From the IMG/VR virus record IMGVR_UViG_3300023180_000018: 64,000 nt of DNA; one strand, given 5' to 3'. The first letter of the stretch is position 1. Each line of letters opens with the position of its first letter. The position numbers were made by a program, and so were the translations under genes. The DNA comes from a virus. This document shows, in pieces, positions 2,430 to 36,240 of this stretch. Under the pieces are notes generated by a model. The model had not been told where the DNA came from and did no database searches. It saw nothing but the letters and a program-made list of their open reading frames with translations.

Positions 2430-4717
2430 TAGATCTTACAGCTTTCACAATCTTCGTCTGATTCTAAAATAGATTGTTCTAGTTCTGGCAAATCTTTTAC
2501 TTCCATTTCTCCAGCACCATCAAACGTATTGTTATAATATAATTGCTTACCGCCATACTTATAAAACATTAAAACGTGTTGAATCATATCTGATAAAGGA
2601 ATTTTTTCATCTTCATAATGTAATGGATTATATGAAGTATTAACTGAAATTCCTTGATCTATGAATTTTTGTAGTACAGCACAAATTTTCAAATAACCTT
2701 CCGGTGATTTTTGATCCCACAATAAATCGTATTTGTTTTTGAGTCTTTGAATACTTGGTACAACCTGCTTTAAAATACCATCTTTTGACTGTTTAACTGA
2801 TACTAAAGCCCGCGGAGGTTCGATTCCATTAGTGCTATTACTTATCTGCGCCGATGTTTCAGCAGGCATGAGTGCCATTAACGTACTATTACGTGGACCA
2901 ATATCAAAAGCTCTTTTACGAAGTGTATCCCAATCCATATTGTATTTTGGCTGTACTAATTCATCCACATCTTTTTTATAAGTGTCAATAGGTAAAATGC
3001 CATTTCCGTATTTACTTTCACACGGCAATTCACATGGACCAATTTCTTCTGCTAAGTCTATAGATGCTTTAATCAAATAGTATGACCATGCTTCAGCATA
3101 TTCATGTAATAATTCTAAATCTGGATTTTGATATGTAGTATCGTTTTTTGCTAACCAAAACGCAAGATTAATAATACCGATTCCAAGAGGCCTTCTATTT
3201 TTTGTAGATAATTCGGCAGCAAGAATTGGATAACTCTGGAAAGACAATAATGCATCTAATGCACGAACAGCTAAAGTACATGGTTTTTCAAAATCTTCTG
3301 GTTTTTTAATTTTACCCCAATTAATTGCAGCCAATGTACACAAACTAATTTCACCTTCATCATCGTATAAATGCTTTAACGGTTTTGTAGGTAAATCAAT
3401 TTCACAACACAAATTACTTTGTCTAATTGGTGCTAATTCTTTCATAAAAGCACCGTGATCATTTGCATGGTCTACATTCATTAAATATACACGGCCAGTA
3501 TCTTTACGTTCTTGAATGAATGATGAAAATAAATCAATTGCAGGAATTGACTTTTTACGAATAGAATATGCACGTTCATATTTTTCATACAATTCTCTAA
3601 ATTTATCTACATCAACATAAAAAGCATCATATAAATCTGGTACATCATTCGGTGAGAATAGAGTAATGTTACCACCTGATAATAAACGTTCATACATTAC
3701 TTTATTAAATTGAACGCCATAATCTAAATGTCTTACTCTGTTTTCTTCTGTGCCTTTGTTGTTTTTAAGGACGAGGATGTCTTCGACTTCGTAGTGCCAT
3801 ATAGGATAATATAAAGTCGCTGCGCCACCTCTGACACCGCCCTGTGAGCACGATTTAACAGCGCTTTGAAAATATTTGAAAAATGGAGTAACGCCAGTAT
3901 GAGAAGTATCTCCATTACGAATCGAAGAACCGATAGCGCGAATGCTACCCGCTCCAATACCAATTCCAGCTTTTTGCGAAACATATTTTACTATAGCCCC
4001 CGCGGTTGCATTGATTGAATCGAGTGAATCATCAGTTTCAATTAAAACGCATGATGAAAATTGTCTTTGAGGAGTTCTAACTCCTGCCATAATTGGTGTT
4101 GGCAAACTGATGTCAAATAAACTAATAGCATTATATAAGTCAACAACCCAATTTAATCGCGTTTCTTTAGGATAGCTATGGAATAATGTCATTGCAATAC
4201 ACATGATAGCCATTTGAGGCGTTTCATATATTTTACCATTAGTTCTATTTTTTACTAAATATTTTCCACGAAATTGTTCCATTGCAGCGTACGTAAAAAG
4301 GAAATCTCTGCTATGGTCAATTTTTGTATCTAAAAAATCTATTTCATCTTTGGAATATTCATCCATAAGAATATCATCATAGATTTTTTCACTTACATTT
4401 TGTATAATATGTGCAGCTAATGTTGGAGGTTCAAATTGTCCAAAAACTTCTTTTCTTAGACCATAGTTAATTAGACGGCCGGCAACATATTGATAATTAG
4501 GAGCATCTTCTGAAATAAGGTCAGCGGCTGCTTTAATTAATGTTTCTTGTACATCTATGGTTTTAATGTTATTATAAAATTGCAAATGGGTTTTAATTTC
4601 TAAATCTGATGCTGATACTCCTGCTAAATCATCACACGCAAAACCAGCAACTTTATGAAATTTATTAAGGTCAAGTGGTTCCTTAGAACCATCACGTTTT
4701 GTTACCATTATGTCCAT
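2429..4717 (-). CDS. nrdA: Ribonucleotide reductase class Ia alpha subunit with ATP cone
   Basis: VTKRDG ATP cone, QFSSCVLI, QSNLCCEI, PAETSAQISN, C-terminal CESCKI. Confidence 0.98.
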   Translation of the reverse strand: MDIMVTKRDGSKEPLDLNKFHKVAGFACDDLAGVSASDLEIKTHLQFYNNIKTIDVQETLIKAAADLISEDAPNYQYVAGRLINYGLRKEVFGQFEPPTLAAHIIQNVSEKIYDDILMDEYSKDEIDFLDTKIDHSRDFLFTYAAMEQFRGKYLVKNRTNGKIYETPQMAIMCIAMTLFHSYPKETRLNWVVDLYNAISLFDISLPTPIMAGVRTPQRQFSSCVLIETDDSLDSINATAGAIVKYVSQKAGIGIGAGSIRAIGSSIRNGDTSHTGVTPFFKYFQSAVKSCSQGGVRGGAATLYYPIWHYEVEDILVLKNNKGTEENRVRHLDYGVQFNKVMYERLLSGGNITLFSPNDVPDLYDAFYVDVDKFRELYEKYERAYSIRKKSIPAIDLFSSFIQERKDTGRVYLMNVDHANDHGAFMKELAPIRQSNLCCEIDLPTKPLKHLYDDEGEISLCTLAAINWGKIKKPEDFEKPCTLAVRALDALLSFQSYPILAAELSTKNRRPLGIGIINLAFWLAKNDTTYQNPDLELLHEYAEAWSYYLIKASIDLAEEIGPCELPCESKYGNGILPIDTYKKDVDELVQPKYNMDWDTLRKRAFDIGPRNSTLMALMPAETSAQISNSTNGIEPPRALVSVKQSKDGILKQVVPSIQRLKNKYDLLWDQKSPEGYLKICAVLQKFIDQGISVNTSYNPLHYEDEKIPLSDMIQHVLMFYKYGGKQLYYNNTFDGAGEMEVKDLPELEQSILESDEDCESCKI

Positions 4718-4719
4718 AA

Positions 4720-4935
4720 TTAATCTTCAAACCATTCCAAAATTTCATTCGCGGAATCTAATAATTCTTTTGCGTCTGCGTACGCGGTGATTTGTTCATG
4801 TACAGCTTCAACTAAATCGGGATGTTCACCAATACCTACTGAGTTATGCATATAAGTATGTACATTTGCAATTGCTTTATCCATGTCTGCTTTATATTTC
4901 GAAATGTTAGCTTTAATTAAATCTGTACGTGCCAT
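4720..4935 (-). CDS. Conserved T4-like phage hypothetical protein
   Basis: 71 aa with VGIGEHPD motif, in operon with nrdA. Confidence 0.65.
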   Translation of the reverse strand: MARTDLIKANISKYKADMDKAIANVHTYMHNSVGIGEHPDLVEAVHEQITAYADAKELLDSANEILEWFED

Positions 4936-5135
4936 TATTCTTCCTCTATTTTTACTGTGTAATCAAATACCATATTATACTTAGTACGTAAAAAATCCAT
5001 GATACTATCTATTCCCGCGTTAGAACCATCTGCAAATCCATCTGAATACGCGTCTGCTTTTCCTACAAAAGATCCTAGTTTATAACTTATGAAAATAACT
5101 CCAATGACTAAAAGGGTGTGAGTAACATCATCCAT
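4935..5135 (-). CDS. Small membrane-anchored hypothetical protein
   Basis: N-terminal hydrophobic segment; stop overlaps next start. Confidence 0.55.
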   Translation of the reverse strand: MDDVTHTLLVIGVIFISYKLGSFVGKADAYSDGFADGSNAGIDSIMDFLRTKYNMVFDYTVKIEEE

Positions 5136-5331: not shown

Positions 5332-6323
5332 GATGTGTATTTAATATTTGCTTGTAGATTATTACTTATATTATTTCTAAGAAGTTCATTAACATTAATA
5401 TCTTCCAATACCATATCATTGATATCTTTTTCTTTTATTATATCAGGAAAGATCACTACTTGACACCCTTTATCCATAACTTTTCGAATTTTTTTACATG
5501 TTTCAATGCTTCTTGGTTCATTATCATAAACAAATATAGACTGTTCATTAACGTAATTCCAATCAATAGATCCACCAGCCATTGCTATTGAATTATCAAT
5601 AAACATAGAATCGATTGGACCTTCTAAAATAAAATGTGGTTTAGAACGATCACATGTATCTAGTCCAAATATTTTAGGCTTTTCATCATTTAACATAATA
5701 GTAATATATCTTATTTCATCATCAGAAAAAGCTCTACCTTGGAAACCAAATAGATTTTTATTTTCATCTAAGAATGGTATAATAAGTCGCGGTGTATCAT
5801 TTTCTATACTTTTAAATTTACCGGGTATAATATCATTTACCCATTTTTTAAATTTTGGCGCATAGAAAAGTTTCGCTTGATAAGGCGTGGGAATTTTACG
5901 TGCGTTAACGTAGTTTTTTACGGGGTGATCCCAACGTAATTGAGATACTTTTTTGAGTTGTTTAAGTGGAGTTGCTTTAATGAAAACGGGAGTCTTCATT
6001 TTATTTGCGAATACTTCTACGTCTGAAAGTACTCTTTGTTTTTTTCCAAATCCGTTCTGTAATTTTTCTTTTAAATATTCTTTATGAATAACCGGATCTA
6101 GAGTTTCTAAAAACTTATCAACTCCAAGAGTAATATTACAATTGTGGCAGTGATACAAATATCCACCATCGTCTTTTGGAAAGAGATATCCTCGAGCTTT
6201 GAATTTATTTTTTTGAGAATCTACACAGATCGGACACCTGCAATTAAATAATCTATTATTAACTCGTTTGAATCTTTCTAAACGAGAACTAATTAAACCA
6301 ATGTATTTTTCTTCAAGCCACAT
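5316..6323 (-). CDS. 61: DNA primase (T4 gp61-like)
   Basis: Zn-binding CPIC...CHNC, RLIIPF, FQGRA, TOPRIM EGPIDS and YDNEPR, KDIND. Confidence 0.95.
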   Translation of the reverse strand: MWLEEKYIGLISSRLERFKRVNNRLFNCRCPICVDSQKNKFKARGYLFPKDDGGYLYHCHNCNITLGVDKFLETLDPVIHKEYLKEKLQNGFGKKQRVLSDVEVFANKMKTPVFIKATPLKQLKKVSQLRWDHPVKNYVNARKIPTPYQAKLFYAPKFKKWVNDIIPGKFKSIENDTPRLIIPFLDENKNLFGFQGRAFSDDEIRYITIMLNDEKPKIFGLDTCDRSKPHFILEGPIDSMFIDNSIAMAGGSIDWNYVNEQSIFVYDNEPRSIETCKKIRKVMDKGCQVVIFPDIIKEKDINDMVLEDINVNELLRNNISNNLQANIKYTSWKKI

Positions 6324-6359: not shown

Positions 6360-6387
6360 ATTATACGCAAGTAAGCGAAAATGTCAA
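6360..6387 (-). promoter_or_regulatory. Sigma70-type promoter upstream of primase
   Basis: TTGACA-16 nt-TATAAT on the minus strand. Confidence 0.7.
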
Positions 6388-6671
6388 CCCATTTGTTGTA
6401 GAAAATGTGAAAGAATTAAAGTTACTCCCGTAGCAATAAGAAACCACATAACTTTATTAACAACTTTCATTTGTTCTTCAACACGATACATAGAATCTTT
6501 TACATCATCTATATTACGTGATAAACGATTCACTCTTTCGTGTGTTTCTACTCTTCGTTGTTCTAAATCCGCGATTTTTTCTTCTACACGGGCTAAAGTA
6601 ACAATTGCGTCAGAAAGTTTATCTAGCTTAGATTCAATACGATCTAAACGTGTAGAATTTGTATCAACCAT
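6384..6671 (-). CDS. Coiled-coil protein with C-terminal TM helix (holin-like/XhlA-like candidate)
   Basis: Heptad-rich N-terminus, hydrophobic C-terminus, directly after spanin pair. Confidence 0.5.
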   Translation of the reverse strand: MVDTNSTRLDRIESKLDKLSDAIVTLARVEEKIADLEQRRVETHERVNRLSRNIDDVKDSMYRVEEQMKVVNKVMWFLIATGVTLILSHFLQQMG

Positions 6672-6679
6672 GTGAGATC

Positions 6680-7096
6680 CTAATTGTTCGGATTATTTTC
6701 TAACCACTCTTCAGCAGTGGTTCCTTCAGATTCTGTTGTTGCTTCACGATAATAGAGAATCAGTTCTTTCTGTTGTCTCACATAACGTCGAACTTCTTGA
6801 AAGTTCTCTGCCATTTTTTCATACCCATCAGGAGTCAACGCAAATACTACAAAGTTACCATCGAGAATTTTTTCGATCTCTTTTTTCTTCTCTTCATAAT
6901 TTTCTTCTGTAATTACAAAAAAATTAACATTGAGAAGATCAATCTCAGCCGGCAACGGCGGTTGATAAATTCTCAGCGGCACTTTTTCCGTCACTGTTAC
7001 GATCTGTGGTTCCGGTTGGATTATCTCCGGTTTCGGTCCCCACTCCAGTCTGGGCATTAGGTTGCACCCCGTCAATAGGAGGGGTATCGTCAGCAT
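6680..7096 (-). CDS. Outer-membrane lipoprotein, o-spanin (Rz1-like)
   Basis: MLTIPLLLTGC lipobox, Pro-rich segment, 5' part overlaps the i-spanin in another frame. Confidence 0.7.
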   Translation of the reverse strand: MLTIPLLLTGCNLMPRLEWGPKPEIIQPEPQIVTVTEKVPLRIYQPPLPAEIDLLNVNFFVITEENYEEKKKEIEKILDGNFVVFALTPDGYEKMAENFQEVRRYVRQQKELILYYREATTESEGTTAEEWLENNPNN

Positions 7097-7493
7097 CCAT
7101 AAGTTCTTTTGTATCATCTTCTAGCATCCTAAAAACTTGTTCTGTTTTTGCATTCATTCGTTTTTCAATCATACCAGGTTTAGCTCTTGCTAATCTTGTC
7201 AAATTGTGATCTTTAAAGATCTTCATCGCGTTGTCTTTTTCTCGCTGTAACTCATTATTCCTTGCGGTGAGTGCAGACATTGCCGCCTCTGATTTCTTTG
7301 CGTTTGCTTCCGCAGCAGCAAGTGACTCTTGAGCAGTTTTCACTGCCATTTCCATCTGCACCTGATTTTCTTTCAGAGTGCGGTTGTTTGCCTCTAGTTG
7401 TGCTTTTGCTGCCTCTAAGTTAGAGACGGTAACCGAATGATAAGCATATCCACCACCCAATAAAAGAAGACACAATAATATAACATATGGCAT
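6945..7493 (-). CDS. Inner-membrane spanin (Rz-like)
   Basis: N-terminal TM helix, long Ala/Gln/Glu coiled coil, KPGMIEKRMN; overlaps a lipoprotein gene. Confidence 0.7.
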   Translation of the reverse strand: MPYVILLCLLLLGGGYAYHSVTVSNLEAAKAQLEANNRTLKENQVQMEMAVKTAQESLAAAEANAKKSEAAMSALTARNNELQREKDNAMKIFKDHNLTRLARAKPGMIEKRMNAKTEQVFRMLEDDTKELMDADDTPPIDGVQPNAQTGVGTETGDNPTGTTDRNSDGKSAAENLSTAVAG

Positions 7494-25328: not shown

Positions 25329-25670
25329 TTAGTTTTCTAAAATAGAAAGTAATTTTAACTTAAAAGCATTAATCTTATCTGTACGGTTAGGCCAATAAAT
25401 GTATTCTTTTTCTTCATTTGCAGCTAAATTATTTAATAGCGGTATAGTATGTTCATACAATAAATTTGATGTATGTTCCCAATGTTCAGCGCGCGCTTTC
25501 CAAAATTCTGCTTCATCAGTTGTTTGTTGAATTTCTTGCTTAACTTGTTGTACAGTTTGTAATTCTTCTTCGTTGACAATACTAAAACCAAAATCAAATG
25601 GTTCTAAATTAATAGGTTCAGTCATTGAAAAAATCCTCAAGAGTTGCTTTCTTTTCGTGATTCCAACCAA
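25329..25670 (-). CDS. Conserved hypothetical protein downstream of gp43
   Basis: FDFGFS...PLLNNL...EYIYWPNR; start probably MTEPIN. Confidence 0.6.
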   Translation of the reverse strand: MVGITKRKQLLRIFSMTEPINLEPFDFGFSIVNEEELQTVQQVKQEIQQTTDEAEFWKARAEHWEHTSNLLYEHTIPLLNNLAANEEKEYIYWPNRTDKINAFKLKLLSILEN

Positions 25671-28161
25671 TAGTATTTAAAATAACATTAACTGGATCTA
25701 AATATCCTTTAACGAATTGCATTTCATAATCTATATATTCTTCAAGCTTAAATTCTGTAGGTAAAGTATCTGGACAGGAAATAACCATATCGTGTAAAGG
25801 ATTTGGTTTTTTTAAATAAGAAAATTTAATCTTTTCTCCATCGTTAATTGATTCATATTTCTTGGTGAGATTATATTTATCTAAATAATGATTATATATC
25901 AATGCACCTTTCACTTGAATTGGTGTACCCTTTTTGTATATATTCTTTTTATCAGCATACGTATCCGGATATCTTTGGCCATCACTAGTTTCTTTCCACG
26001 TTAAAAAATTAACACTACGCGGAAAAGCTATTTGTTCAAATTTTAATGTATTAAATTCTTTTCTGATATCTGCAATATATTTTTGAACTACAGTTTCAGA
26101 CTCATTCATTATAAGTTCTAATGTTTTTTTAATATAATCACGACATACACCAGGAGTCGAAGATCTAATAGCTTCAATCCCCATCATTTTTAATTTAGGT
26201 TCATTATATCTAACACCTTCAGAATCATGCACATTCATGATGTAACGTTTTTTAGCAGTCCATATAGCTTTATCAGCAATGTTTTCTCGTTTCATAAACA
26301 TTTTTTGGCTGACTGCATTCATATAATCTGCAAGTTCTTCATAGCATTTATCAATATACGATTCAATTTTTGTCTTAGCAACCCTATCAAGAAATTCTAC
26401 AATTTCATTTGTTTGACCATTAGGTAAAACTTGATTTACTAATTCATCAAAAACAATATATACAGAATCAGTATCAACTGCTAATACATAATCCTTATCA
26501 TTTGTTTTTAATAACTTATTAAGATATTCATTTAACTTACGCTCAATCCATCTAATAGAAAGTTGGCCAGCTTTAGTAATAGCCTCAGCGTTTTCTAAAT
26601 CAAACCAACGAAAGTATTGATTAGCTAATGCACCATATGCAGAATTTAGTTGAATCTTTTTAGCAAGTTGTAGATTATGATATCGAGAAATATCAATTTC
26701 TAGTTCTTTAGTTGGTGTTTTTTCATATTCCTGTTTAGCTTCAATCATTTTTTGTTTATATTTTGTACGATCATCATACATTTCTTTCATCAGAGCTGGT
26801 AAAAATCCACGAACATCACGTCGATAAAACTGGCCATTTGGAGTCATTGTATAATCATATTTTTTTAAGACTTCAGTATCAATTTTTTTATCAAGTAAAT
26901 GATCGACAGATATATTACGAGTAAGATTATATAATTCAGCATTAGAACTTGCGCGAGTATCTGGTGAGATATTATATTGCTGAATAAGATGCGGATAAAG
27001 AGAATTTAAATCGAAAGACATTACCCACTTATGCATACCAGTAATAGGTTCTTTAACAAATCCACCTTCAATACTTCTATTCATTTCAGATATTGATCTT
27101 GGATTGATAACAACATTTTTATCAAGTAAATAGTTGTGTATTATTACATCCCATATCAATACTGAAGCGAGGGCATCTATATAATTAACTTTAGCATCAT
27201 ATGAAATTGCAAAAATTTGTTCAAGAAATCCTAGCTTTTCTTCAAGCATAAAAATCAAATCAGTATCACGAATATTATATTCAATGAATTTTTGAAAATT
27301 TTCTTTATACAACGCAAATAGATTACCATACTCTGAGTAATCTATTTTCTTAACGCCAAGTTCAACCTCAGCAATATAGTCTAGTCTATAAGATTCGCGA
27401 GGATCTAATTGAAATTTACGATATACAGCTAGATAATCTAAACAAGAAACACCTCCGATGTTGTATGTTATTTCTTCTTTAGAATTACGTCTAACAGTAT
27501 TCTTTGTAATAATTCCCCACGGCGATAATTTATTTACTGCGTCTTCATCCACAATTCTGCGGATACGATGTACAAGATAAGGAATATCAAAAAACTCAGT
27601 GTTCCATCCCGTAACGACATCAGCATCCAATTCATTCCAGATTTCAAGGAATTTACATAAGAGTTGATATTCATTTTTGCATTTAATATAGTAAGTATTT
27701 TTTTCATCTGTAACAAAATCTCCGCAACCAAGAATTATTTTTAGATCCCGTCTTCTTAACGAAATGGCAGTTACTTCTTTATCAGCGTGTAATGGCTCAG
27801 GAAAACCATCATCAGATGCAACCTCAATATCAATCAATACAATATTAATTTTAGAAGTATCAGGATTTAAATTCTTGTATGTATCATATATATAAATATA
27901 AGGCCAGCGGGTAAGACCATAAAATTCTTTTCCGCGAACTCCATCGTATAGTTTGAGTTCTTCGTGGCACTTTGAAATTGAATCATATAATTTAGGTTTT
28001 ACATTTTGTCCATATATATTATAGTAACCGGTATTTTGTTGGGATGGTTGATATAAAGTAGGTTCATATTTTACTTTACGTTGAAACCTACCGGTCTCAT
28101 CAAAACCTCGAACATAAATGTAATCGCCTTTAAATTTGGAGACGTTAGTATAAAATTCCAT
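25618..28161 (-). CDS. 43: DNA polymerase family B (T4 gp43-like)
   Basis: Exo DIEV, GWN..FDIPY; pol SFDLNSLYP, KIQLNSAYG, DTDS, KKRY; no intein seen. Confidence 0.98.
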   Translation of the reverse strand: MEFYTNVSKFKGDYIYVRGFDETGRFQRKVKYEPTLYQPSQQNTGYYNIYGQNVKPKLYDSISKCHEELKLYDGVRGKEFYGLTRWPYIYIYDTYKNLNPDTSKINIVLIDIEVASDDGFPEPLHADKEVTAISLRRRDLKIILGCGDFVTDEKNTYYIKCKNEYQLLCKFLEIWNELDADVVTGWNTEFFDIPYLVHRIRRIVDEDAVNKLSPWGIITKNTVRRNSKEEITYNIGGVSCLDYLAVYRKFQLDPRESYRLDYIAEVELGVKKIDYSEYGNLFALYKENFQKFIEYNIRDTDLIFMLEEKLGFLEQIFAISYDAKVNYIDALASVLIWDVIIHNYLLDKNVVINPRSISEMNRSIEGGFVKEPITGMHKWVMSFDLNSLYPHLIQQYNISPDTRASSNAELYNLTRNISVDHLLDKKIDTEVLKKYDYTMTPNGQFYRRDVRGFLPALMKEMYDDRTKYKQKMIEAKQEYEKTPTKELEIDISRYHNLQLAKKIQLNSAYGALANQYFRWFDLENAEAITKAGQLSIRWIERKLNEYLNKLLKTNDKDYVLAVDTDSVYIVFDELVNQVLPNGQTNEIVEFLDRVAKTKIESYIDKCYEELADYMNAVSQKMFMKRENIADKAIWTAKKRYIMNVHDSEGVRYNEPKLKMMGIEAIRSSTPGVCRDYIKKTLELIMNESETVVQKYIADIRKEFNTLKFEQIAFPRSVNFLTWKETSDGQRYPDTYADKKNIYKKGTPIQVKGALIYNHYLDKYNLTKKYESINDGEKIKFSYLKKPNPLHDMVISCPDTLPTEFKLEEYIDYEMQFVKGYLDPVNVILNTIGWNHEKKATLEDFFND

Positions 28162-28582: not shown

Positions 28583-29362
28583 GTGGCACAGTGGAATAAA
28601 AATAGTCAGAGTTACCTAGCAAACGGTACCACACTGTTTGAAGCAGTAATGATTGCTGATAAAGATGGTAACATTCTCAACACTGCGGGTTCAGCCTCAA
28701 ACATTCCCATTGCCACCGGTGGAGTGACTGGTTATTCTCACATCAATAAATTTGGTTATCGTTCAACCCTCGCTACCACTGGGTTCGAAACTATATGGGA
28801 CGGGGCTGCATCAAACTATACATACCAAACCGTTGGTACTGCAATAGCAACATCTGACGCAGCTGCGTCGGCCGATGATACTAAAGAAGTCAACATTCAA
28901 GGTTTGGATGAAAACTACAATGAAGTCAGTGAAACAATTACAATTGGTGGTGGTGCATCAACGGCACAATTCTCACGAGTTTTTCGTGCAAGAATGGTAT
29001 CAGAAAATAACGACGGTAACGTTACAATAACCACGACGGGTACTGTTGCATATATTCAAGAAGATGCGGGTCAAACTCTTATGGCAGTTTACACCATTCC
29101 CGCAGGCAAAACTGGTTATCTGATTAAACTCCACGGTACTGTGGACAAAAATCAAGATGCTATCTTTAGATTAGTCTCTCGTGACTTCGGTACTACCGTG
29201 TTCAATGTCAAAGGGCAGTTTGGTGTCTTTGCCAATAGTTTCGACTACGATTATCCCGTTCCCTTAGTTTTCTCAGAAAAAACTGATATAGAAGTAAGAG
29301 CAGATGCCGGTAACTCTATGGGTGGTGGTGCACTCTTCGATATTATCTTAGTTGACAATTAA
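28583..29362 (+). CDS. Hypothetical protein, probably virion-associated
   Basis: Thr/Gly/Ala-rich; INKFG, QGLDENY, GQTLMAVYTIPAGKTGY, EKTDIEVRA. Confidence 0.6.
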   Translation: MAQWNKNSQSYLANGTTLFEAVMIADKDGNILNTAGSASNIPIATGGVTGYSHINKFGYRSTLATTGFETIWDGAASNYTYQTVGTAIATSDAAASADDTKEVNIQGLDENYNEVSETITIGGGASTAQFSRVFRARMVSENNDGNVTITTTGTVAYIQEDAGQTLMAVYTIPAGKTGYLIKLHGTVDKNQDAIFRLVSRDFGTTVFNVKGQFGVFANSFDYDYPVPLVFSEKTDIEVRADAGNSMGGGALFDIILVDN

Positions 29363-29385
29363 ATTTAATTTGAGGATTTTATATA

Positions 29386-29925
29386 GTGTTTAATGATTTT
29401 TTAGTAATGGATAGAGTTATATCACACGCTTTTCTTGGTATTTTTGATCAGTTTGAATTTAAAAACGTTGGTACGCATTTAAATACATCTAGTGTTACAT
29501 ATTCTCTTTTAGACAAAAAAAATAAGATTAAATATACCGGAGATAAATTACTTAACAGTGAATTAGTAGAAGAATTTTTTTATAGCTACTGTCCTTTATT
29601 ATGTGAAAAATATTGTGAAATAGAAACCGGTCCATTAAACAAAGTAACCTCATTTACTTTCTCACTCTCATCTTATAATTCTAATGACGGTATTCCTTAC
29701 TATAATGTGCCTTCTAATAATTTTTTTAATGCTATAATTTATATTTCTACTGATGGTTTAGGAATTGATTTACACGATGGAAAAACAAAAGAATCGTTTA
29801 AACACATAGACTGGCGTAAGAATAGAGCATTTTTTTATAAAAGAACAAATGATTCTATAATTGGACAAAATACTATGAAAAATTCGCGTATATTAACAAT
29901 GAGCTTACAAAATGATAACTTATGA
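29386..29925 (+). CDS. Degenerate 2OG-Fe(II) oxygenase-like protein
   Basis: AIIYIS, G, IDWRKNRAFFY shared with paralogues; HxD not evident. Confidence 0.45.
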   Translation: MFNDFLVMDRVISHAFLGIFDQFEFKNVGTHLNTSSVTYSLLDKKNKIKYTGDKLLNSELVEEFFYSYCPLLCEKYCEIETGPLNKVTSFTFSLSSYNSNDGIPYYNVPSNNFFNAIIYISTDGLGIDLHDGKTKESFKHIDWRKNRAFFYKRTNDSIIGQNTMKNSRILTMSLQNDNL

Positions 29926-30658
29926 AAATAACATTATAAAATATTCTAATAAAGAATATGGATCTGGCGAATTATATTTTCACGACGCAAAAGCTTATAT
30001 TCCATGGAGAGCCAGAACTTTATTTACTAAAGAACCTTGGACATTAAAATGGTTTATGCAATTAGAAGAAGATGATGTTTTATGGGATATTGGTGCCAAT
30101 GTAGGTCTATATAGTCTATGGGCCGCTCATAAAACACCATGTAAAAATATATATTCTTTCGAACCATCTAGTTATAACTATCCAATTTTACATACTAACA
30201 TTATTAAAAATAATTATCAAGATAGAATTACTGCTTATCCTATAGGCTTATCAGATTTTAATATAGCAAGTGAAATTGGATTAGAACATCCTAATCCAGG
30301 CGCGGCATCTGCTTCTTTATTATCTAAATTTAAAAATCAACATATACAAAAACAAGGATGTATTGCTCTTAGTGGTGATTTTTTAATTGATCTAGGTATT
30401 CCATCACCAACCCATCTAAAAATTGACGTAGATGGAATAGAACCATATATTATAAATGGTTTAGAAAACGCTATTGCAGAAACCGTTAAAAGTATTATAG
30501 TAGAAATAGATCAAACAAATCCTTTACATATGGCAGCATTTCAAAAATTAAAAGATATAGGATACGGGTTTGAAATAGAACATTTAAAACAAGTATATAG
30601 AAATAGAAAAGATACAAAATTCTGTGCCATGGCAGAATTTATTTTAACAAAAGTTTAA
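29912..30658 (+). CDS. FkbM family methyltransferase
   Basis: WDIGANVGLYS, SFEP, HLKIDVDGIE. Confidence 0.9.
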   Translation: MITYENNIIKYSNKEYGSGELYFHDAKAYIPWRARTLFTKEPWTLKWFMQLEEDDVLWDIGANVGLYSLWAAHKTPCKNIYSFEPSSYNYPILHTNIIKNNYQDRITAYPIGLSDFNIASEIGLEHPNPGAASASLLSKFKNQHIQKQGCIALSGDFLIDLGIPSPTHLKIDVDGIEPYIINGLENAIAETVKSIIVEIDQTNPLHMAAFQKLKDIGYGFEIEHLKQVYRNRKDTKFCAMAEFILTKV

Positions 30659-30670
30659 AAGGATTTAGTT

Positions 30671-32428
30671 GTGTGCGCAATTAATGGATATGTAAACTAC
30701 GATAATTTAAAAAATCAAGATGTTAATAACAATAGAAAATTAAAAAAAATATTACAGATTATGAACCAATCTAATAGATTTAGAGGCCCAGATGGTTCAG
30801 ATATAATCATCGATAATAATGTTGGTTTAGGACACAATTTATTAGCAATCTCTGGTAGTAGCATTAATCTTCAACCAGCTGTAACAGATAATGGAAACAT
30901 TATGGTTTATAATGGAGAATGTTATGATGTAACAGGATTTGATACTCCTTATGTAGTAGAACAGTTTGAAAAAAGAAGAATAGATTTTTTAAAGAATATA
31001 AATGCGCATTTTGCAATTGCCTTTTATGATAAGAAAAAACAAGAAATTACTTTAGCAAGAGATCACTTTGGAGTTAAACCTCTATTTTACCACTACACAG
31101 CAAAAAAACTAGTATTTTCATCTACACTACATGGAATTATAAGCGCTGGCGTGAAACCCAAACCATCATTTAATATAATTGAAAATGAAGATGTACGAGT
31201 ACATAATCCAAAACTAAGATTTCGTGTAAAAAGTAGCACTAAGTATGAACAAATGATTAATCATTTTTATAAATCGAATGGGTCGTGGATGGGTAAGCAG
31301 ATTGGATATGATAATGTATTTTCGTTGTGTCCTGGACAATATATAACTTTTAGTACAAAATCTGCTAGAATAATTTCGTCTGGTAGTTTATTTGATTTTA
31401 CTTTAGAAAATAACTTAAAAGATATGTATGATATCAAAGATATTATTAGCGAACAAGTTCATAATGTTGGTGATACTAGCAAAAACTTTTCAATAGCTTT
31501 ATCTGGAGGATTAGATTCTGGAGCTATAGGTTCTATATTAAAAAACAAAGATCCTTACTACATCACAGTAACAACACAAATGAATAATAATAATCAGTCA
31601 CTTGAAGAAAATACTAATTATTCTTCAGATTATTATTATGCAAGAAAAAACGCTGAAAAATTTGGAAAAATGTTACACTGGCCAGCTATAACAATTTCAA
31701 ATTATAAAAGATTAGTAGATGAAACTAGTCAATCTTTGTTATTTCCTGCGCAAGATCCTGCAAGACTTGCGTGTAGATTATTATTACCTGAATATAGTAA
31801 AATGTTAGGCGGAAAAGTAATTATTAGTGGAGAAGGTGGGGATGAATTATTTACGGGGTATAGACAACACAATGATTTTTTTAGAAGAATAGGTAATAAA
31901 TTGGAAATAAACTTTAATTCTGCTCTAGGGTATTCAAAAATTTTAAAAAAACATTGGATTGAAATGCAAAACGAAATGGAATATTTCCCAACATGGTGTA
32001 AAGGACCAGATATGGTAAATAATGCTTTATTATTAAGCATTTTCAAATCAGCATCATTTTTTTGTATGGTTCAAGATCAATTGTGTGGGATGCATAGTAT
32101 AGAAAATAGAACACCATTTTTAACTATAAGTTTTGTTAAAAAAATGTTAAGTATACCATCATACATTAAATTTAAAAGATATAAAAATGTCAACTCAGAA
32201 CTATATCATTCACATAAATATATTTTAAGAAAATGTTTTGAAAAAGATTTACATCCTGAAGTTGTTAATAGAAACGATAAAAGTGGATTCGTTTCACCTA
32301 GTTGGCATCGAGGATTATACAATTATAAATATTCTTTTAGTGGACAAAGATATAAATACCATAAAGAAACATATGATTATGTGGAAAATTATTCAAATAT
32401 TTGTATGAAGAAAATTGATCATATATAA
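30671..32428 (+). CDS. asnB: Asparagine synthase (glutamine-hydrolysing)-like amidotransferase
   Basis: N-terminal MCAING, RGPDG, YNGE, RDHFGVKPLFY, LSGGLDS, SGEGGDELFTGY, ENRTPFL. Confidence 0.9.
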   Translation: MCAINGYVNYDNLKNQDVNNNRKLKKILQIMNQSNRFRGPDGSDIIIDNNVGLGHNLLAISGSSINLQPAVTDNGNIMVYNGECYDVTGFDTPYVVEQFEKRRIDFLKNINAHFAIAFYDKKKQEITLARDHFGVKPLFYHYTAKKLVFSSTLHGIISAGVKPKPSFNIIENEDVRVHNPKLRFRVKSSTKYEQMINHFYKSNGSWMGKQIGYDNVFSLCPGQYITFSTKSARIISSGSLFDFTLENNLKDMYDIKDIISEQVHNVGDTSKNFSIALSGGLDSGAIGSILKNKDPYYITVTTQMNNNNQSLEENTNYSSDYYYARKNAEKFGKMLHWPAITISNYKRLVDETSQSLLFPAQDPARLACRLLLPEYSKMLGGKVIISGEGGDELFTGYRQHNDFFRRIGNKLEINFNSALGYSKILKKHWIEMQNEMEYFPTWCKGPDMVNNALLLSIFKSASFFCMVQDQLCGMHSIENRTPFLTISFVKKMLSIPSYIKFKRYKNVNSELYHSHKYILRKCFEKDLHPEVVNRNDKSGFVSPSWHRGLYNYKYSFSGQRYKYHKETYDYVENYSNICMKKIDHI

Positions 32429-32431
32429 ATA
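32424..32431 (+). promoter_or_regulatory. T4-type late promoter
   Basis: TATAAATA 27 nt upstream of the exported-protein operon. Confidence 0.6.
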
Positions 32432-32457
32432 TAATTACTTCGTAAATGGAAAATTGA

Positions 32458-33015
32458 ATGAAAACTTTATTATTTTTATGTGGATTGTTTATTGTAAGTT
32501 TTGCAAATGGAGAAGAGACTACTCAACCAGATGATGTTATAAGAACAGAATCGGTAACGGATAGTACGGTGAATACCAACTCTAATACGACTACTACATT
32601 GAAGTCGCCTCCCGCTAGTGCAATTACGCCTACAATAAACACATCCAATTCTGATCTTTGTACTTTTGGTGTTGCTGGTGCAATCCAAACGCAGATACTA
32701 GGTATCTCGACTGGAACACAAGTAACTGACGAAAATTGCGAACGACTTAAACTTTCTAAAACATTATATGATATGGGTATGAAAGTTGCCGCTGTATCCA
32801 CGCTATGTCAAGATACTAGAGTATTTGATGCTATGATGATGGCAGGAACACCCTGTCCTTATGATGGTTTAATAGGGCTAGAAGCTAAGGATGCTTGGAC
32901 GTTAAATGAAAATGAACGACCAGAAAACAAAAAAGAAAAAGGAATGCAAGATGGTACTAAGACGCTCTTGGGCAGCGCTGGGGTTGCTAGCTTACTCCTG
33001 CTTTTGCTTCTCTGA
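32458..33015 (+). CDS. Exported Cys-containing protein with C-terminal hydrophobic anchor
   Basis: Signal peptide, Thr-rich linker, four Cys in the mature region, terminal LLLLLLL. Confidence 0.7.
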   Translation: MKTLLFLCGLFIVSFANGEETTQPDDVIRTESVTDSTVNTNSNTTTTLKSPPASAITPTINTSNSDLCTFGVAGAIQTQILGISTGTQVTDENCERLKLSKTLYDMGMKVAAVSTLCQDTRVFDAMMMAGTPCPYDGLIGLEAKDAWTLNENERPENKKEKGMQDGTKTLLGSAGVASLLLLLLL

Positions 33016-33835
33016 TGATTCTCTAGATACAGTATATGGTACAACAAATAATGCAGCACAATTTGGTTATAACTGGGTTATGCAAAATGTATTACCACAA
33101 CAAGCAGGTTTACAGGTTAGCAGTGTAGCATATCAATATAAAACTGTTAAAAATACAGAAGATGATATGTTAGTTCATGTACAAAATGAAAATGCTAGAG
33201 GACCGGGATATATTTTTAGATCTACAGACGATTGGTCTGGCATCCCTGGTAATTCTATTAATAAAATTGTACCAGTAAACTTAATTGATATTTCATACTG
33301 GGGACCAGGATCTATCGAGGTAGAAGGATTTGGTAGTGTAGAAGATGCTAAAGTATTTTACACATATCAATATGATCCTTGCTTTGATCCTCAAACAAAT
33401 CCGGAATGTCCGGGTTACATTGATCCATTTGTTGTTGAGTTAACAGAAGTAGAAGTAACTGATCCACTTGACGATGATATAATTCAAGACGAATTAGATC
33501 GTAAAGCAAATTTACGTCAACAAAAAGAAGACGAAAAAGAAGAAGCACGTAAAAGAGCATTAGAAAAAGTAGAAGAAATAGAAGAACGTTTAGAACAATT
33601 ATTAGGTATTGCAATGGAAAATGATTTTGCGATTGATGCAGTACTTTTACACGAAGCAATGATGGGATTAAATGCATTGCCTCAATCATATTTAAAGACT
33701 CTTGTTGGAGGTAATTACGAAGATACAGTTGTACTAGTTGATTCTAAATTACCATCTAACCCGAGAAGTTTGAGAGTGGGAATGGCACAAGAACTTTTAC
33801 ATCAAAAGTTAGTTGATCTACAATATGCCAAGTAA
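32951..33835 (+). CDS. Exported hypothetical protein
   Basis: Probable start MVLRRSWAALGLLAYS (signal-like); beta-rich domain, DPCFDPQTNPECPGY, acidic coiled coil. Confidence 0.65.
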   Translation: MVLRRSWAALGLLAYSCFCFSDDSLDTVYGTTNNAAQFGYNWVMQNVLPQQAGLQVSSVAYQYKTVKNTEDDMLVHVQNENARGPGYIFRSTDDWSGIPGNSINKIVPVNLIDISYWGPGSIEVEGFGSVEDAKVFYTYQYDPCFDPQTNPECPGYIDPFVVELTEVEVTDPLDDDIIQDELDRKANLRQQKEDEKEEARKRALEKVEEIEERLEQLLGIAMENDFAIDAVLLHEAMMGLNALPQSYLKTLVGGNYEDTVVLVDSKLPSNPRSLRVGMAQELLHQKLVDLQYAK

Positions 33836-33856
33836 CGAGACAAAAGGAAATAATTT

Positions 33857-34357
33857 ATGTATAAGCAAAGCATTACATTATTATCGGCCTTAATATTTTG
33901 TACGAGTGCATATGCCGAAGAAATCCCTGTAACGGGAAGCGTAGCGTCAAAGTGTGTTGTAACACAAGACACAGTAGGAGTATATGGAAACCCAGATCCT
34001 TCAACCCTTACTACATCACCTTCATCTGGTGGTGTACATCCGGTTGTAAGATATGATGTTATCCAAGCTGATTTTTATATGGCTAGGATTGTACATCCTG
34101 ATTCGTTTTCAGAAAGTCCAGTGTTAACTGACGTAGTTAACTGGACTGGTGATGTAGTTGTAGACCAAGTATCTGATGCGGGTATGTCAGAATATGATAA
34201 TAATAAAATTGAATACAACAATGTTACAGAAGTAGACTTATCAATTGCAGGATCTACGTGGTTTAGAGTAGAATCAGAAGCTGATTACGGTTACGATAAA
34301 GCTTTCCCTGGTGGAACTTATCAAGCTACCGTAACTGCAGAATGTATAGCTATTTAA
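33857..34357 (+). CDS. Pilin/fimbrial-subunit-like exported protein
   Basis: Signal peptide (AYA), IPVTGSVASKCVV N-terminal strand, C-terminal GGTYQATVTAEC. Confidence 0.5.
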   Translation: MYKQSITLLSALIFCTSAYAEEIPVTGSVASKCVVTQDTVGVYGNPDPSTLTTSPSSGGVHPVVRYDVIQADFYMARIVHPDSFSESPVLTDVVNWTGDVVVDQVSDAGMSEYDNNKIEYNNVTEVDLSIAGSTWFRVESEADYGYDKAFPGGTYQATVTAECIAI

Positions 34358-34368
34358 GGGATTACTAA

Positions 34369-34746
34369 ATGATGCGTTATATAATGTTAATAGGATTACT
34401 AGGGATTTGTGGGCAAACATACGCCCACGAATTCCTGCCTACTTACCCTAAATTACGTCAATCTTTTGTGCCGGGCGTGTTATATACACAGATGGAATTA
34501 TTTAATAAAAGGGAAAATATAAGATTCTATGAATTAGAAGTCTTTGATAGTAATTGGAAAAAAGTTTCTTTTGCTACAACAGAGAAAATAACTAAAATAG
34601 AATACTTAGAGAAAAAACAAATTGACGTTTATATTCGTAAAGAAGATAAATCTAGAGCAACCTATATTTGTTCTAAATCGAAAATACTCGTTGAAAATAC
34701 GACTAAACCGATTATGGCATCGAGGATTTGTTCTAAAATAAAATAA
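34369..34746 (+). CDS. Exported Ig-like protein resembling a pilus chaperone N-domain
   Basis: Signal peptide (TYA), HEFLPTY, MELFNKRE...YELEVFD, YICSKS...SRICSK. Confidence 0.45.
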   Translation: MMRYIMLIGLLGICGQTYAHEFLPTYPKLRQSFVPGVLYTQMELFNKRENIRFYELEVFDSNWKKVSFATTEKITKIEYLEKKQIDVYIRKEDKSRATYICSKSKILVENTTKPIMASRICSKIK

Positions 34747-34747
34747 T

Positions 34748-35194
34748 ATGAGAATTTTTGTTATTATAATTTTGATGTGTTTATCTTATAAAGCTAATGC
34801 AGAGTCTAGCTCACTCAACTTAGCTTTACCGGGTTCACCTCAAAGTTATGCGTCTGATAGGGTAAGAGCAGGACAGTTAGAATGTCAAAACGCTATTGGT
34901 GGTACTACTAATGTAGAGTTTGGCGTAGTTGGTATTCTAAACCAAAATGGACCTTACAATAGTTTTTACGGTACGTCAGCTGGGGTTGCACCACCTGAAT
35001 ATGATTCCGATGGACTAGTAAAAGATGTGGGTGTATATGCTAAAATAACTATCCCACTAAACGCACCAAAAGAAAGAATTAATTGTAATACTTTATATAA
35101 ACTTGAACTTGAAAGAAGAAGATTGGAGATCCAAAGACTACAACAAGAAGTCGCTAATTTAAGGAATCTTAAATTTACCGACGAAAACGAATAG
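34748..35194 (+). CDS. Exported hypothetical protein with C-terminal coiled coil
   Basis: Signal peptide (ANA), SLNLALP, ECQNAIG, VGVYAKITIPL, RINCNTLYKLEL. Confidence 0.65.
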   Translation: MRIFVIIILMCLSYKANAESSSLNLALPGSPQSYASDRVRAGQLECQNAIGGTTNVEFGVVGILNQNGPYNSFYGTSAGVAPPEYDSDGLVKDVGVYAKITIPLNAPKERINCNTLYKLELERRRLEIQRLQQEVANLRNLKFTDENE

Positions 35195-35202
35195 AGGAAA
35201 AC

Positions 35203-35661
35203 ATGGCAGAAATCGAATTTGGGGGTATGACCTTCAAAGGCGGTAAAATGATGGTTCTCATCACTGCATTAAGTACTCTGGGTGGAGCAACTTGGGGAGT
35301 TTTTGAATTTTATAAAGATTACATGGATATGAAAGAAATCATCCAGAATATAGATGTAGATGAGATCGCTGCACGTAACGATCAAATCGAAATTAAACTT
35401 GATGAAGCTATAGATTATTCAAGAAGTATAAAAAACGATTTAAGAGATGACTTTAATCGTATGGAAAAAAACGTTGACCGTGTTGAAGATCAAAATCGAA
35501 ACATGGAAGATAAAGTTAAAGATATGATCGATCGTGCATCAGAAAGATTCGATACTAAGCGAGAAAGTTTACAGACTGATACTCGAATACAAATTGAAAC
35601 ATTGGAAGACCGCCTTAATAAAAAAATACAGAATGTACTCGATAACCCTCTAGCAGATTAA
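35203..35661 (+). CDS. Membrane-anchored coiled-coil protein
   Basis: N-terminal TM, long charged helix, ends LDNPLAD. Confidence 0.65.
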   Translation: MAEIEFGGMTFKGGKMMVLITALSTLGGATWGVFEFYKDYMDMKEIIQNIDVDEIAARNDQIEIKLDEAIDYSRSIKNDLRDDFNRMEKNVDRVEDQNRNMEDKVKDMIDRASERFDTKRESLQTDTRIQIETLEDRLNKKIQNVLDNPLAD

Positions 35662-35674
35662 GGAGTACAATAAT

Positions 35675-35860
35675 ATGCGGGTAAAGATAACCTTTCATAA
35701 TGGATATTCATTAGTTGGTGATCTTGAAATTCTAAAGGAAATGTTACTAGATGATGTATTGAATGATGATAAAAAATTTGTAACAGTAATAAGACCAAAA
35801 GGAGATGAACTGTATTTAAATAAGGAAGCAGTTGCTTATATCGTGAAAGAGGAGGACTAA
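35675..35860 (+). CDS. Small beta-barrel-like protein (paralogue of 36043..36240)
   Basis: LDDVLNDDKKF...LNKEAV pattern; AGGAG RBS. Confidence 0.55.
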   Translation: MRVKITFHNGYSLVGDLEILKEMLLDDVLNDDKKFVTVIRPKGDELYLNKEAVAYIVKEED

Positions 35861-35861
35861 C

Positions 35862-36041
35862 ATGGAAAATGTAGTCAATCTTAACACAGGATATGAAGGT
35901 AATGAGACACCTACAGAAAAGGTAGATCTACCAGAATATCAGGTAATAGAATATGTTCCTTTCGAATATAGAAAGGAAATAGCTCTTTATTGCTCAATTG
36001 GTTTAAACATTGGATTTTTATTTGGTTTATTAATATTATAA
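35862..36041 (+). CDS. Small protein with C-terminal TM (59 aa)
   Basis: Manual translation MENVVNLN...SIGLNIGFLFGLLIL; GGAGG RBS. Confidence 0.55.
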   Translation: MENVVNLNTGYEGNETPTEKVDLPEYQVIEYVPFEYRKEIALYCSIGLNIGFLFGLLIL

Positions 36042-36042
36042 A

Positions 36043-36240
36043 ATGGATACATTTAATATAGTTGAAGCTACAATTACATTGTCAGATGGAACCCGTTGGT
36101 TAAATTGCGAAGTTTTTTTACCAACGGGTGACCGTCTTTCTGACGTCGTTAATGATACTAGAAATTTTTTACCTATAAAAAAAGAAGGTAAAGAATTTAT
36201 TATTCGTAAAGATCAGATAATATTTTTAACAGAAAATTAA
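36043..36240 (+). CDS. Small beta-barrel-like protein
   Basis: RLSDVVNDTRNFLP...IRKDQI. Confidence 0.55.
   Translation: MDTFNIVEATITLSDGTRWLNCEVFLPTGDRLSDVVNDTRNFLPIKKEGKEFIIRKDQIIFLTEN

Follow-up and report, generated by a model that had tools for sequence, protein, structure and literature searches.

Three described multigene systems come closest to a cassette of six genes (g1-g6) that we analysed in a 64,000-nucleotide stretch of DNA of an uncultured marine T4-like phage (IMG/VR record IMGVR_UViG_3300023180_000018, hereafter the window). The first is the chaperone-usher (CU) pathway of bacterial pili, in its Csu/SCPU form (CsuC with CsuA/B) as well as its FGL form (Caf1M-Caf1, SafB-SafA, DraB), defined by an usher, a chaperone of two domains and sequences that fit established family models. 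The second is the two-component spanin, exemplified by Rz/Rz1 of lambda and PseT.3/PseT.2 of T4, which pairs an i-spanin (an N-terminal transmembrane (TM) segment and a periplasmic coiled coil) with an o-spanin (a lipoprotein encoded next to or within the i-spanin gene). The third is found in pelagimyophages and in HTVC023P-type podophages, which carry CsgG/CsgF (curli-type) gene clusters of unknown role (PMC7029224, PMC9004378, PMC9599517).

The cassette (32458-35661, plus strand) resembles each of these in part. We interpret it as a late, lysis-linked envelope device that consists of a membrane-anchored core (g1, g2 and g6) and an usher-less chaperone-subunit add-on (g3, g4 and g5), and give this interpretation a probability of roughly 0.4. 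No published description of the cassette was found in a literature search.

Organisation, conservation and predicted export

The window has a G+C content of ~32%, is coded almost wholly on the minus strand and contains T4-type genes, among them that for a family B DNA polymerase (25618-28161). The cassette lies within a plus-strand island (28583-36240), across which the sign of the GC skew flips; the rest of the window has minus-strand coding. Its six open reading frames (ORFs) are spaced by 1 to 21 nt or overlap. The T4-type late promoter motif TATAAATA (32424-32431, plus strand) was read directly, 27 nt upstream of the g1 start. The initial annotation of the window had described a late promoter ahead of six packed plus-strand genes, against the dominant strand, and this arrangement is what we find. 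Two extra copies of TATAAATA lie at 32324 and 32351 on the same strand. Among 109 unique relatives, 33 have an exact copy no more than 120 nt upstream of g1, where 0.013 would be expected per 120 nt. A terminator scan gave no convincing terminator downstream of g6. As to the clustering of the motif, three of the nine exact copies in the window fall within 108 nt (32324-32431), and two of these three lie inside the 3' end of an asparagine synthase gene.

Two scans of IMG/VR yielded 132 loci, in which gene presence was determined by tblastn. In 124-131 of the 132, g1-g6 are all present with order and strand preserved, at identities down to ~40%. The flanks vary: the upstream asparagine synthase, three small genes (g7-g9), lysozyme and IscU occur in at most 21 of the 132 loci. 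The g4 family comprises at least 2318 clusters at 90% identity, all annotated as 'hypothetical', on contigs of up to ~200 kb. Among marine T4-like phages, the cassette ranks with the more frequent of the unnamed gene sets, and its core is shared with Pelagibacter podophages.

The N-termini of g1-g5 consist of Lys or Arg, an uncharged hydrophobic run of 12-15 residues and a cleavage motif of small residues. By a residue-pattern heuristic, at least 92% of the 41-63 homologues per gene share these features while the residues themselves vary, which is how signal peptides behave. The mature proteins have invariant cysteines, in even number in each protein. Five signal-peptide-like N-termini with paired cysteines had been noted in the single sequence, and the feature holds across the families. 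Our best explanation is that the six genes form a single module, expressed late, with products that are all sent to the host cell envelope.

A core trio and a co-travelling add-on

The stop of g1 overlaps the start of g2 in all 75 unique complete cassettes (median 65 nt; 32951-33015 in the window). Thus, one stretch of DNA codes for the Leu-rich membrane anchor of g1 and, in another frame, for the signal peptide of g2. A comparable overlap is found in the cultured Pelagibacter podophage HTVC115P, where gp54 is a g1 homologue (59% identity) and gp49 a g6 homologue (38% identity over the full length). Between them is a 466-aa protein, the start of which overlaps gp54 and the C-terminus of which is g2-like. 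Mosig, a cultured myophage of Pelagibacter, has the same three genes (00202-00200); its g6 homologue, Mosig_00200, was identified by hidden Markov model (HMM). This three-gene version, with a long form of g2 (466-853 aa) in place of g2-g5, recurs in many contigs, where g2 forms of 500-850 aa have long disordered stalks. At one distant locus (L197, 737-4154) the gene order is g1-g2-(51 aa)-g6-g3-g4-g5. The occurrence of the trio by itself in HTVC115P, Mosig and many contigs, together with the order at L197, indicates that g1, g2 and g6 form a core and that g3, g4 and g5 are a co-travelling add-on. The L197 copy of g3 is very diverged (E = 8.6e-16 to the g3 profile); g1, g5 and g6 of this locus stay close to their families.

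Homologues of g1 were identified in the Pelagibacter phages HTVC115P, HTVC023P, HTVC202P, HTVC033P, Baldr and Mosig and in the Roseobacter phages CRP-207 and CRP-810. The Cys domain of g1 occurs alone in Ralstonia phage RSP15. For g2 and g3, tblastn gave no match in cultured phages. We considered whether g1 also has bacterial copies and rejected this: the 30 matches in genome collections are all on contigs of metagenome-assembled genomes (MAGs) or single-amplified genomes, and because they are scattered over phyla and have phage-like neighbours we read them as mis-binned phage DNA.

One of the trio loci (L155, 3622-11405) is on a 335-kb contig of a Neomarinimicrobiota MAG. Its g2 is 853 aa long and its g1 carries a 250-residue Asn/Thr-rich stretch. 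Next to the trio are ORFs that resemble, by eye only, heme oxygenase and ferredoxin-dependent bilin reductase; these would be cyanophage-type auxiliary genes in the bin of another phylum.

Proteins of the core trio

We scanned all six proteins against Pfam, PHROGs and NCBIfam, and profiles of g1-g5 against the sequences of the PDB. Nothing was matched beyond two PHROGs of unknown function, and none of the six proteins falls in a described or named family in these libraries.

The g1 protein (32458-33015, plus strand, 185 aa; ORF list and alignment A4) has a signal peptide, a low-complexity stretch rich in Thr, Ser and Asn, a highly conserved four-Cys domain, a short linker and a Leu-rich C-terminal TM anchor. 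Cysteines C68, C94, C117 and C133 are invariant, and the alignment has 53 invariant columns, including a Gly/Ala-rich loop between C68 and C94. The protein corresponds to phrog_20531 (function unknown; E = 8.5e-14); no match was found in Pfam, NCBIfam or the PDB. Fusion of the g1 domain to known domains was ruled out, as the long forms merely have longer low-complexity stretches.

The g2 gene (32951-33835, plus strand) encodes 294 aa from 32951, in a frame that is open from 32906 (alignment A3). Its product has a signal peptide, a beta-rich N-terminal domain that ends in DPCFDPQ..P.CPGY, an acidic coiled-coil linker and a conserved C-terminus (LAQQLLH..MV..QY), with C144 and C153 invariant. 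It has no family match in Pfam, NCBIfam or the PDB sequences. The ESM Atlas model is of low confidence (predicted local distance difference test (pLDDT) 0.42) and reaches TM-scores of at most 0.41.

The g6 protein (35203-35661, plus strand, 152 aa; alignment A5) has a short cytoplasmic N-terminus (MAE.EF.G..F.GGK), one TM segment that begins near residue 16 and a periplasmic coiled coil of ~105 residues with the conserved C-terminus LDNPLAD. An uncharged hydrophobic run begins at about residue 15 in 40 of 41 homologues, in keeping with the TM-anchored coiled coil that had been proposed for the sixth protein. Pfam and NCBIfam returned coiled-coil noise only. Its homologue in Roseobacter phage CRP-810 is gp51, which has a TM segment and a coiled coil (hmmsearch 3e-11).

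Two annotations in CRP-810 (L199, OR671924.1) look wrong. The gene for gp51 (5719-6141) is annotated as 'lysozyme' and that for gp53 (4333-5088), which contains the g1 Cys domain, as an 'OmpA family protein'. We had considered the 'lysozyme' beside the g1 homologue as a link to an endolysin and rejected it because gp51 is the g6 homologue.

Lysis genes and a separate spanin-like pair

With its N-terminal TM segment, periplasmic coiled coil and conserved C-terminal contact motif, g6 has the build of an i-spanin of the Rz or PseT.3 kind. The core trio is also found among lysis genes. Mosig_00203, directly upstream of the g1 homologue, matches the family GTA_holin_3TM (PF11351) above the cut-off (E = 1.6e-5), placing the trio of this phage beside a holin. 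A T4-type or GH19 endolysin lies no more than 1.5 kb from the cassette in 20 of 127 unique loci, and in the window a T4-lysozyme-like ORF is located 590 nt beyond g6, on the opposite strand. In the podophages the trio comes after the tail-fibre genes, which is the location of the lysis genes in T7-like phages. A flanking ORF cluster of the type seen at locus L061 was tried as a holin of the gene transfer agent type and is not counted here: Pfam gave no match to it, nor did BLAST connect it with the Mosig holin.

A second set of genes in the window has the Rz/Rz1 arrangement. One gene (6945-7493, minus strand) encodes a 182-aa protein with an N-terminal TM segment and a coiled coil. Overlapping its end by 173 nt, in another frame, is the start of a lipoprotein gene (6680-7117, minus strand), the sole candidate in a lipobox scan of all ORFs in the window (lipobox LLTGC). 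We regard the pair (6680-7493) as a putative two-component spanin of the phage group; it has no annotation in the cultured phages. An overlapping pair in Melnitz is homologous to it (blastp 1.7e-11 and 3.2e-13), and HTVC008M and a close relative of the window (G155) have the pair as well.

The pair was not found in Mosig or HTVC115P (E <= 0.01), two phages that have the trio. In Mosig the trio is located between the holin and a DUF7201 gene that precedes the primase gene, and in Melnitz the pair is upstream of the corresponding genes. The presence of the trio in the place of the pair in Mosig suggests that it can stand in for a spanin pair.

The add-on: a subunit-like and a chaperone-like protein

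The g3 protein (33857-34357, plus strand, 166 aa) was studied with an alignment of 56 sequences and an AlphaFold2 (AF2) model. It has a signal peptide, a conserved free N-terminal peptide (VPI.G.V.SKC), an immunoglobulin (Ig)-like beta-sandwich and a last strand with the pattern FPaG.Y.A.V.AEC. The N- and C-terminal strand motifs to which the initial annotation had drawn attention are present as PVTGSVASKC and GGTYQATVTAEC and are conserved in the 56 sequences; G27, C33, G153, Y155, A161 and C163 are invariant. In the AF2 model (pLDDT 90.3) the sandwich starts at residue 33, and residues 21-32, which are conserved, are unstructured (pLDDT 64-75). A predicted disulfide between C33 and C163 links the first and last strands.

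A Foldseek search with the g3 model returned CU pilins first (CfaB, FimF/G, the PapG pilin domain, CsuA/B and Caf1), with E values of 1.3e-3 to 3.5e-2 and TM-scores of ~0.4. We also used VIA, an exhaustive structure search in which unrelated models reach Z 7-8. Its best matches to g3 are MSCRAMM N3 domains (SdrD, ClfB, FnBPA; best Z 7.9), which are within this background, and no CU pilin is among the top 50. Beta-sandwich carbohydrate-binding modules (CBM), with scores only slightly lower, join the MSCRAMM Ig domains as the best superpositions of g3 (Z 7.9-7.0 over 106-115 aligned residues). Unlike g3, the MSCRAMM proteins are Gram-positive surface proteins with another domain context; neither they nor the CBM have a sequence relation to g3.

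For comparison at the sequence level we assembled 18 SCPU proteins and eight of their chaperones from sampled gammaproteobacterial genomes, leaving the unpublished genome G145 out of the alignment; an SCPU search of 14 control genomes gave no match. Aligned with hhalign to the 18 SCPU proteins, g3 gave a probability of 53.9% (E = 1.3e-4), and all eight cross-controls gave 4.3% or less. At a relaxed threshold the alignment runs end to end. The alternating N-terminal strand of g3 and its early Cys then fall on the donor strand and Cys of SCPU, and FPaG.Y.A.V falls on the C-terminal vPAG.Y.DT.TV of SCPU. The second conserved Cys of the SCPU set has no counterpart, as it faces a Cys-less stretch of g3, and the first-to-last-strand disulfide of g3 is a further difference from the pilins. 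None of the 56 g3 members matches Pfam SCPU (PF05229) at E <= 1. At the level of sequence, the relation of g3 to SCPU is a distant resemblance and not membership.

A full HMMER search with the g3 profile against 1.84 billion representatives gave 109 matches, all of them family members or fragments, and so no bridge to bacterial pilins. The distant full-length relatives (P0206, P0216, P0222 and P0226) have no Pfam match, and those distant relatives for which the context is known (L197) are in the same cassette.

Immediately downstream, in the subunit-then-chaperone order of CU loci, is g4 (34369-34746, plus strand, 125 aa). Its product has a signal peptide followed by a single PapD-like Ig domain (mature length ~105 aa), with C101 and C121 invariant in the alignment of 63 members. 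The AF2 model, built with the family alignment, has a pLDDT of 90.5. Foldseek hits to it are domain 1 of the CU chaperones DraB (E = 2.5e-4), FimC, Caf1M, FaeE, PapD, SafB and CsuC (to 3e-3), and also MSP domains. In VIA, g4 reaches Z 11.0 with FimC (98 residues, 2.6 A) and SafB, 10.3 with CfaA, 9.8 with PapD and 9.3 with CsuC. These values exceed the background of 7-8 and thus indicate a PapD-like fold. MSP domains, which have the same fold, score alike (~10); the match thus identifies the fold without singling out chaperones. A conserved Asn of g4 aligns with the L.N.G motif of the chaperone family, and hhalign against the eight Csu-type chaperones gave 15.8% (controls 4.3% or less). No match to PapD_N (PF00345) was found among the 63 members at E <= 1.

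The second chaperone domain (PapD_C) is lacking, since every one of the 63 aligned members is 125 aa long, and among longer proteins no two-domain form turned up, the one sequence of 266 aa being presumably a fusion. The proposal that g4 is a single Ig-type chaperone domain is therefore borne out for the fold (Z 11.0) but not by a match to PapD_N. Together, g3 and g4 resemble a subunit-chaperone pair and are not members of the known families. In addition, all 63 g4 sequences have His at the predicted first position of the mature protein (residue 20, 34426-34428; motif A|HEF.PTYP). Copper proteins with a 'histidine brace' typically begin with His; in g4 this is the sole invariant His.

The last gene of the add-on, g5 (34748-35194, plus strand, 148 aa; alignment A6), encodes a protein with a signal peptide that lacks a lipobox, a small Cys46-Cys113 beta module with an amphipathic hairpin around a variable loop, and a C-terminal coiled coil. 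C46 and C113 are invariant across the homologues. The protein corresponds to phrog_37374 (function unknown; E = 1.5e-5) and its neighbours in the ESM Atlas are viral only. It has no match in Pfam, NCBIfam or the PDB, and all alignment members gave noise against Pfam.

Search for an outer membrane pore

No usher (PF00577) was matched by Pfam in g1-g6 or their neighbours, as had been said of the window from the outset. The same was true, at E <= 0.1, of five related contigs of viral origin (completeness 85-89% for two of them), while the control genome was matched. CsgG (PF03783) was not detected in g1-g6, nor in Mosig, HTVC115P, CRP-810 or five contigs that bear the cassette; control genomes were matched. 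It was identified in HTVC008M (1.8e-54) and Melnitz (4.3e-50), both of which lack g1. Within this small sample, in which several records are incomplete, the curli-type CsgG module and the cassette may be alternatives.

With neither an usher nor CsgG found in these searches, the cassette is not a canonical chaperone-usher pilus. Three defining CU features (usher, second chaperone domain and match to the family models) are not found here. Also unlike CU loci, g3 and g4 are in lytic phages, under a late promoter and among four further orphan envelope proteins. We also considered whether the cassette is the curli operon published for pelagiphages. Like those clusters (PMC7029224, PMC9004378, PMC9599517), it is a multigene exported set which the host lacks, has no assigned function and occurs in phages of SAR11-type hosts, both myophages and podophages; proposals for the clusters include fibres and pores, and the two distributions seem complementary. 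We rejected the identity, however, because g1-g6 resemble neither CsgG nor CsgF and a search of five contigs with the cassette gave no CsgG; the folds differ as well.

None of the outcomes that the initial annotation named as refuting it was seen: the Ig folds are predicted, the export features are kept and the genes are conserved as a unit, collinear in nearly all loci. The observation in the initial annotation is confirmed and its interpretation, of a chaperone-usher (Csu/SCPU-like) structure, is partly supported: the ends of g3 (hhalign 54%) and the fold of g4 agree with it, but the Pfam models, the usher and a g3 fold match above background do not.

Proposed mechanism and alternatives

We propose that g1 would be held in the inner membrane by its C-terminal TM segment, with the disulfide-locked domain in the periplasm. 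The g2 protein would be secreted and bear a long acidic stalk, and g6 would be anchored by its N-terminal TM segment, its coiled coil extending ~15 nm into the periplasm. In the periplasm g4 may clasp g3 by beta-strand complementation, like a pilus chaperone with its subunit, after which subunits may be joined to one another by the conserved N-terminal strand that g3 leaves free. Without an usher, the coiled-coil parts, being anchored in the membrane, would retain the product in or on the envelope. The assembly would come into action together with holin and endolysin as the infection ends, and would either help to breach or remodel the outer layers or ready the envelope for release. The context points at least as strongly to such a lysis-phase envelope role as to a fimbria.

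Several observations weigh against this proposal. An endolysin is adjacent in 16% of loci only, and the holin link comes from one phage. The cassette has three to six genes instead of the two of a spanin, and it lacks a lipoprotein partner: no cassette protein has a lipobox, no lipobox Cys is conserved in g1-g5, and the one lipoprotein candidate of the window (6680-7117) lies far away from the cassette. As the window and G155 have their own Rz/Rz1-like pair, the cassette is not the only spanin candidate of this phage. For the add-on, the matches to the predicted g3 fold are within background and are led by MSCRAMM and CBM-type sandwiches. The cassette may thus be without any connection to lysis.

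A more far-reaching version of the proposal, which we regard as possible though on the doubtful side, is that a one-domain chaperone and a donor-strand subunit, half of a bacterial pilus assembly, have been joined by phages that lyse abundant marine bacteria to an orphan membrane-anchored core as a pore-less, periplasm-spanning machine. The core trio alone would then be a third spanin-like type that replaces Rz/Rz1-type pairs, as in Mosig and HTVC115P. If the chaperone-subunit reading is true, viruses use donor-strand chemistry outside the chaperone-usher pathway. A role of the core trio in lysis, if true, would fill a gap, since many marine phages have no known spanin, and would bear on the bursting of SAR11-type cells and the release of their carbon. 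The question is open to direct testing because the trio is present in the cultured phages Mosig, HTVC115P and CRP-810.

A true surface fibre is unlikely. Here, g3 would form a donor-strand polymer that crosses the outer membrane through a new pore, made of oligomers of g5 or of g1 and g2, and the fimbriae would serve aggregation, much as in the 'sibling capture' idea put forward for the pelagiphage curli genes. The PapD-like fold of g4 would fit this, as would the SCPU-like ends of g3 with their conserved N-terminal strand and invariant Gly, and g5 could contribute a strand of strictly alternating hydrophobic residues beside its variable loop. The complementary distribution of the cassette and the CsgG module and the fact that fibre-secretion genes have been published for these phages (PMC7029224, PMC9599517) are also consistent with a fibre. 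However, no usher, secretin or CsgG was found, and g3, in contrast to exposed pilins, ranks with the best-conserved of the six proteins (63% mean column identity). The sandwich in the AF2 model of g3 is closed, its last strand disulfide-linked to the first, and late expression leaves a short time before lysis. Moreover, Melnitz, which bears the curli genes, showed no clumping (PMC9004378).

We consider it less likely again that the exported proteins mask receptors or exclude other phages, covering receptors, peptidoglycan or lipopolysaccharide late in infection so that progeny are spared loss on debris or competing phages are blocked. The g3 protein would then be a binding sandwich and not a polymer. 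This could explain its matches to a chitin-binding domain (Z 7.0, 87 of 97 residues), CBM3 and MSCRAMM N3 (Z 7.9), although these fold matches are within background, and its invariant aromatic residues (Y74, F84, W96, W135, F136 and Y155). Late-expressed, exported blockers of phage are known, T5 Llp being an example, but one or two small proteins suffice for the known functions of this type, whereas the cassette has six collinear genes and membrane-spanning coiled coils. Nor is binding to a variable receptor easily reconciled with a g1 that is so extremely conserved among phages of Pelagibacter, Roseobacter and Ralstonia.

That the products are virion parts, fibres or decoration that join the particles at or after lysis, is very improbable: the late promoter is of the kind used by structural genes, the podophage trio follows the tail-fibre genes and Ig-like domains decorate many virions, but five of the six proteins have cleavable Sec signal peptides and periplasm-type disulfides, two have membrane anchors, T4-type virions assemble in the cytoplasm and no PHROG structural family was matched.

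Neighbouring genes

Directly upstream of the cassette, on the same strand, are genes for an FkbM-type methyltransferase and a glutamine-dependent asparagine synthase (29912-32428). The asparagine synthase gene was detected in no related locus, and the two genes are probably a separate insertion.

Near the Rz/Rz1-like pair, a gene at 6384-6671 (minus strand) encodes a 95-aa coiled coil with a C-terminal TM segment. Its relative in HTVC008M is AGE60481 (blastp 2e-5), and AGE60481 has matches of its own, at 1e-22 to 1e-24, to Melnitz_37 and to Mosig_00199 (Pfam DUF7201, E = 1.9e-17). In each of these phages this gene is just ahead of the primase gene, beside either the spanin-like pair or the g1-g2-g6 trio.

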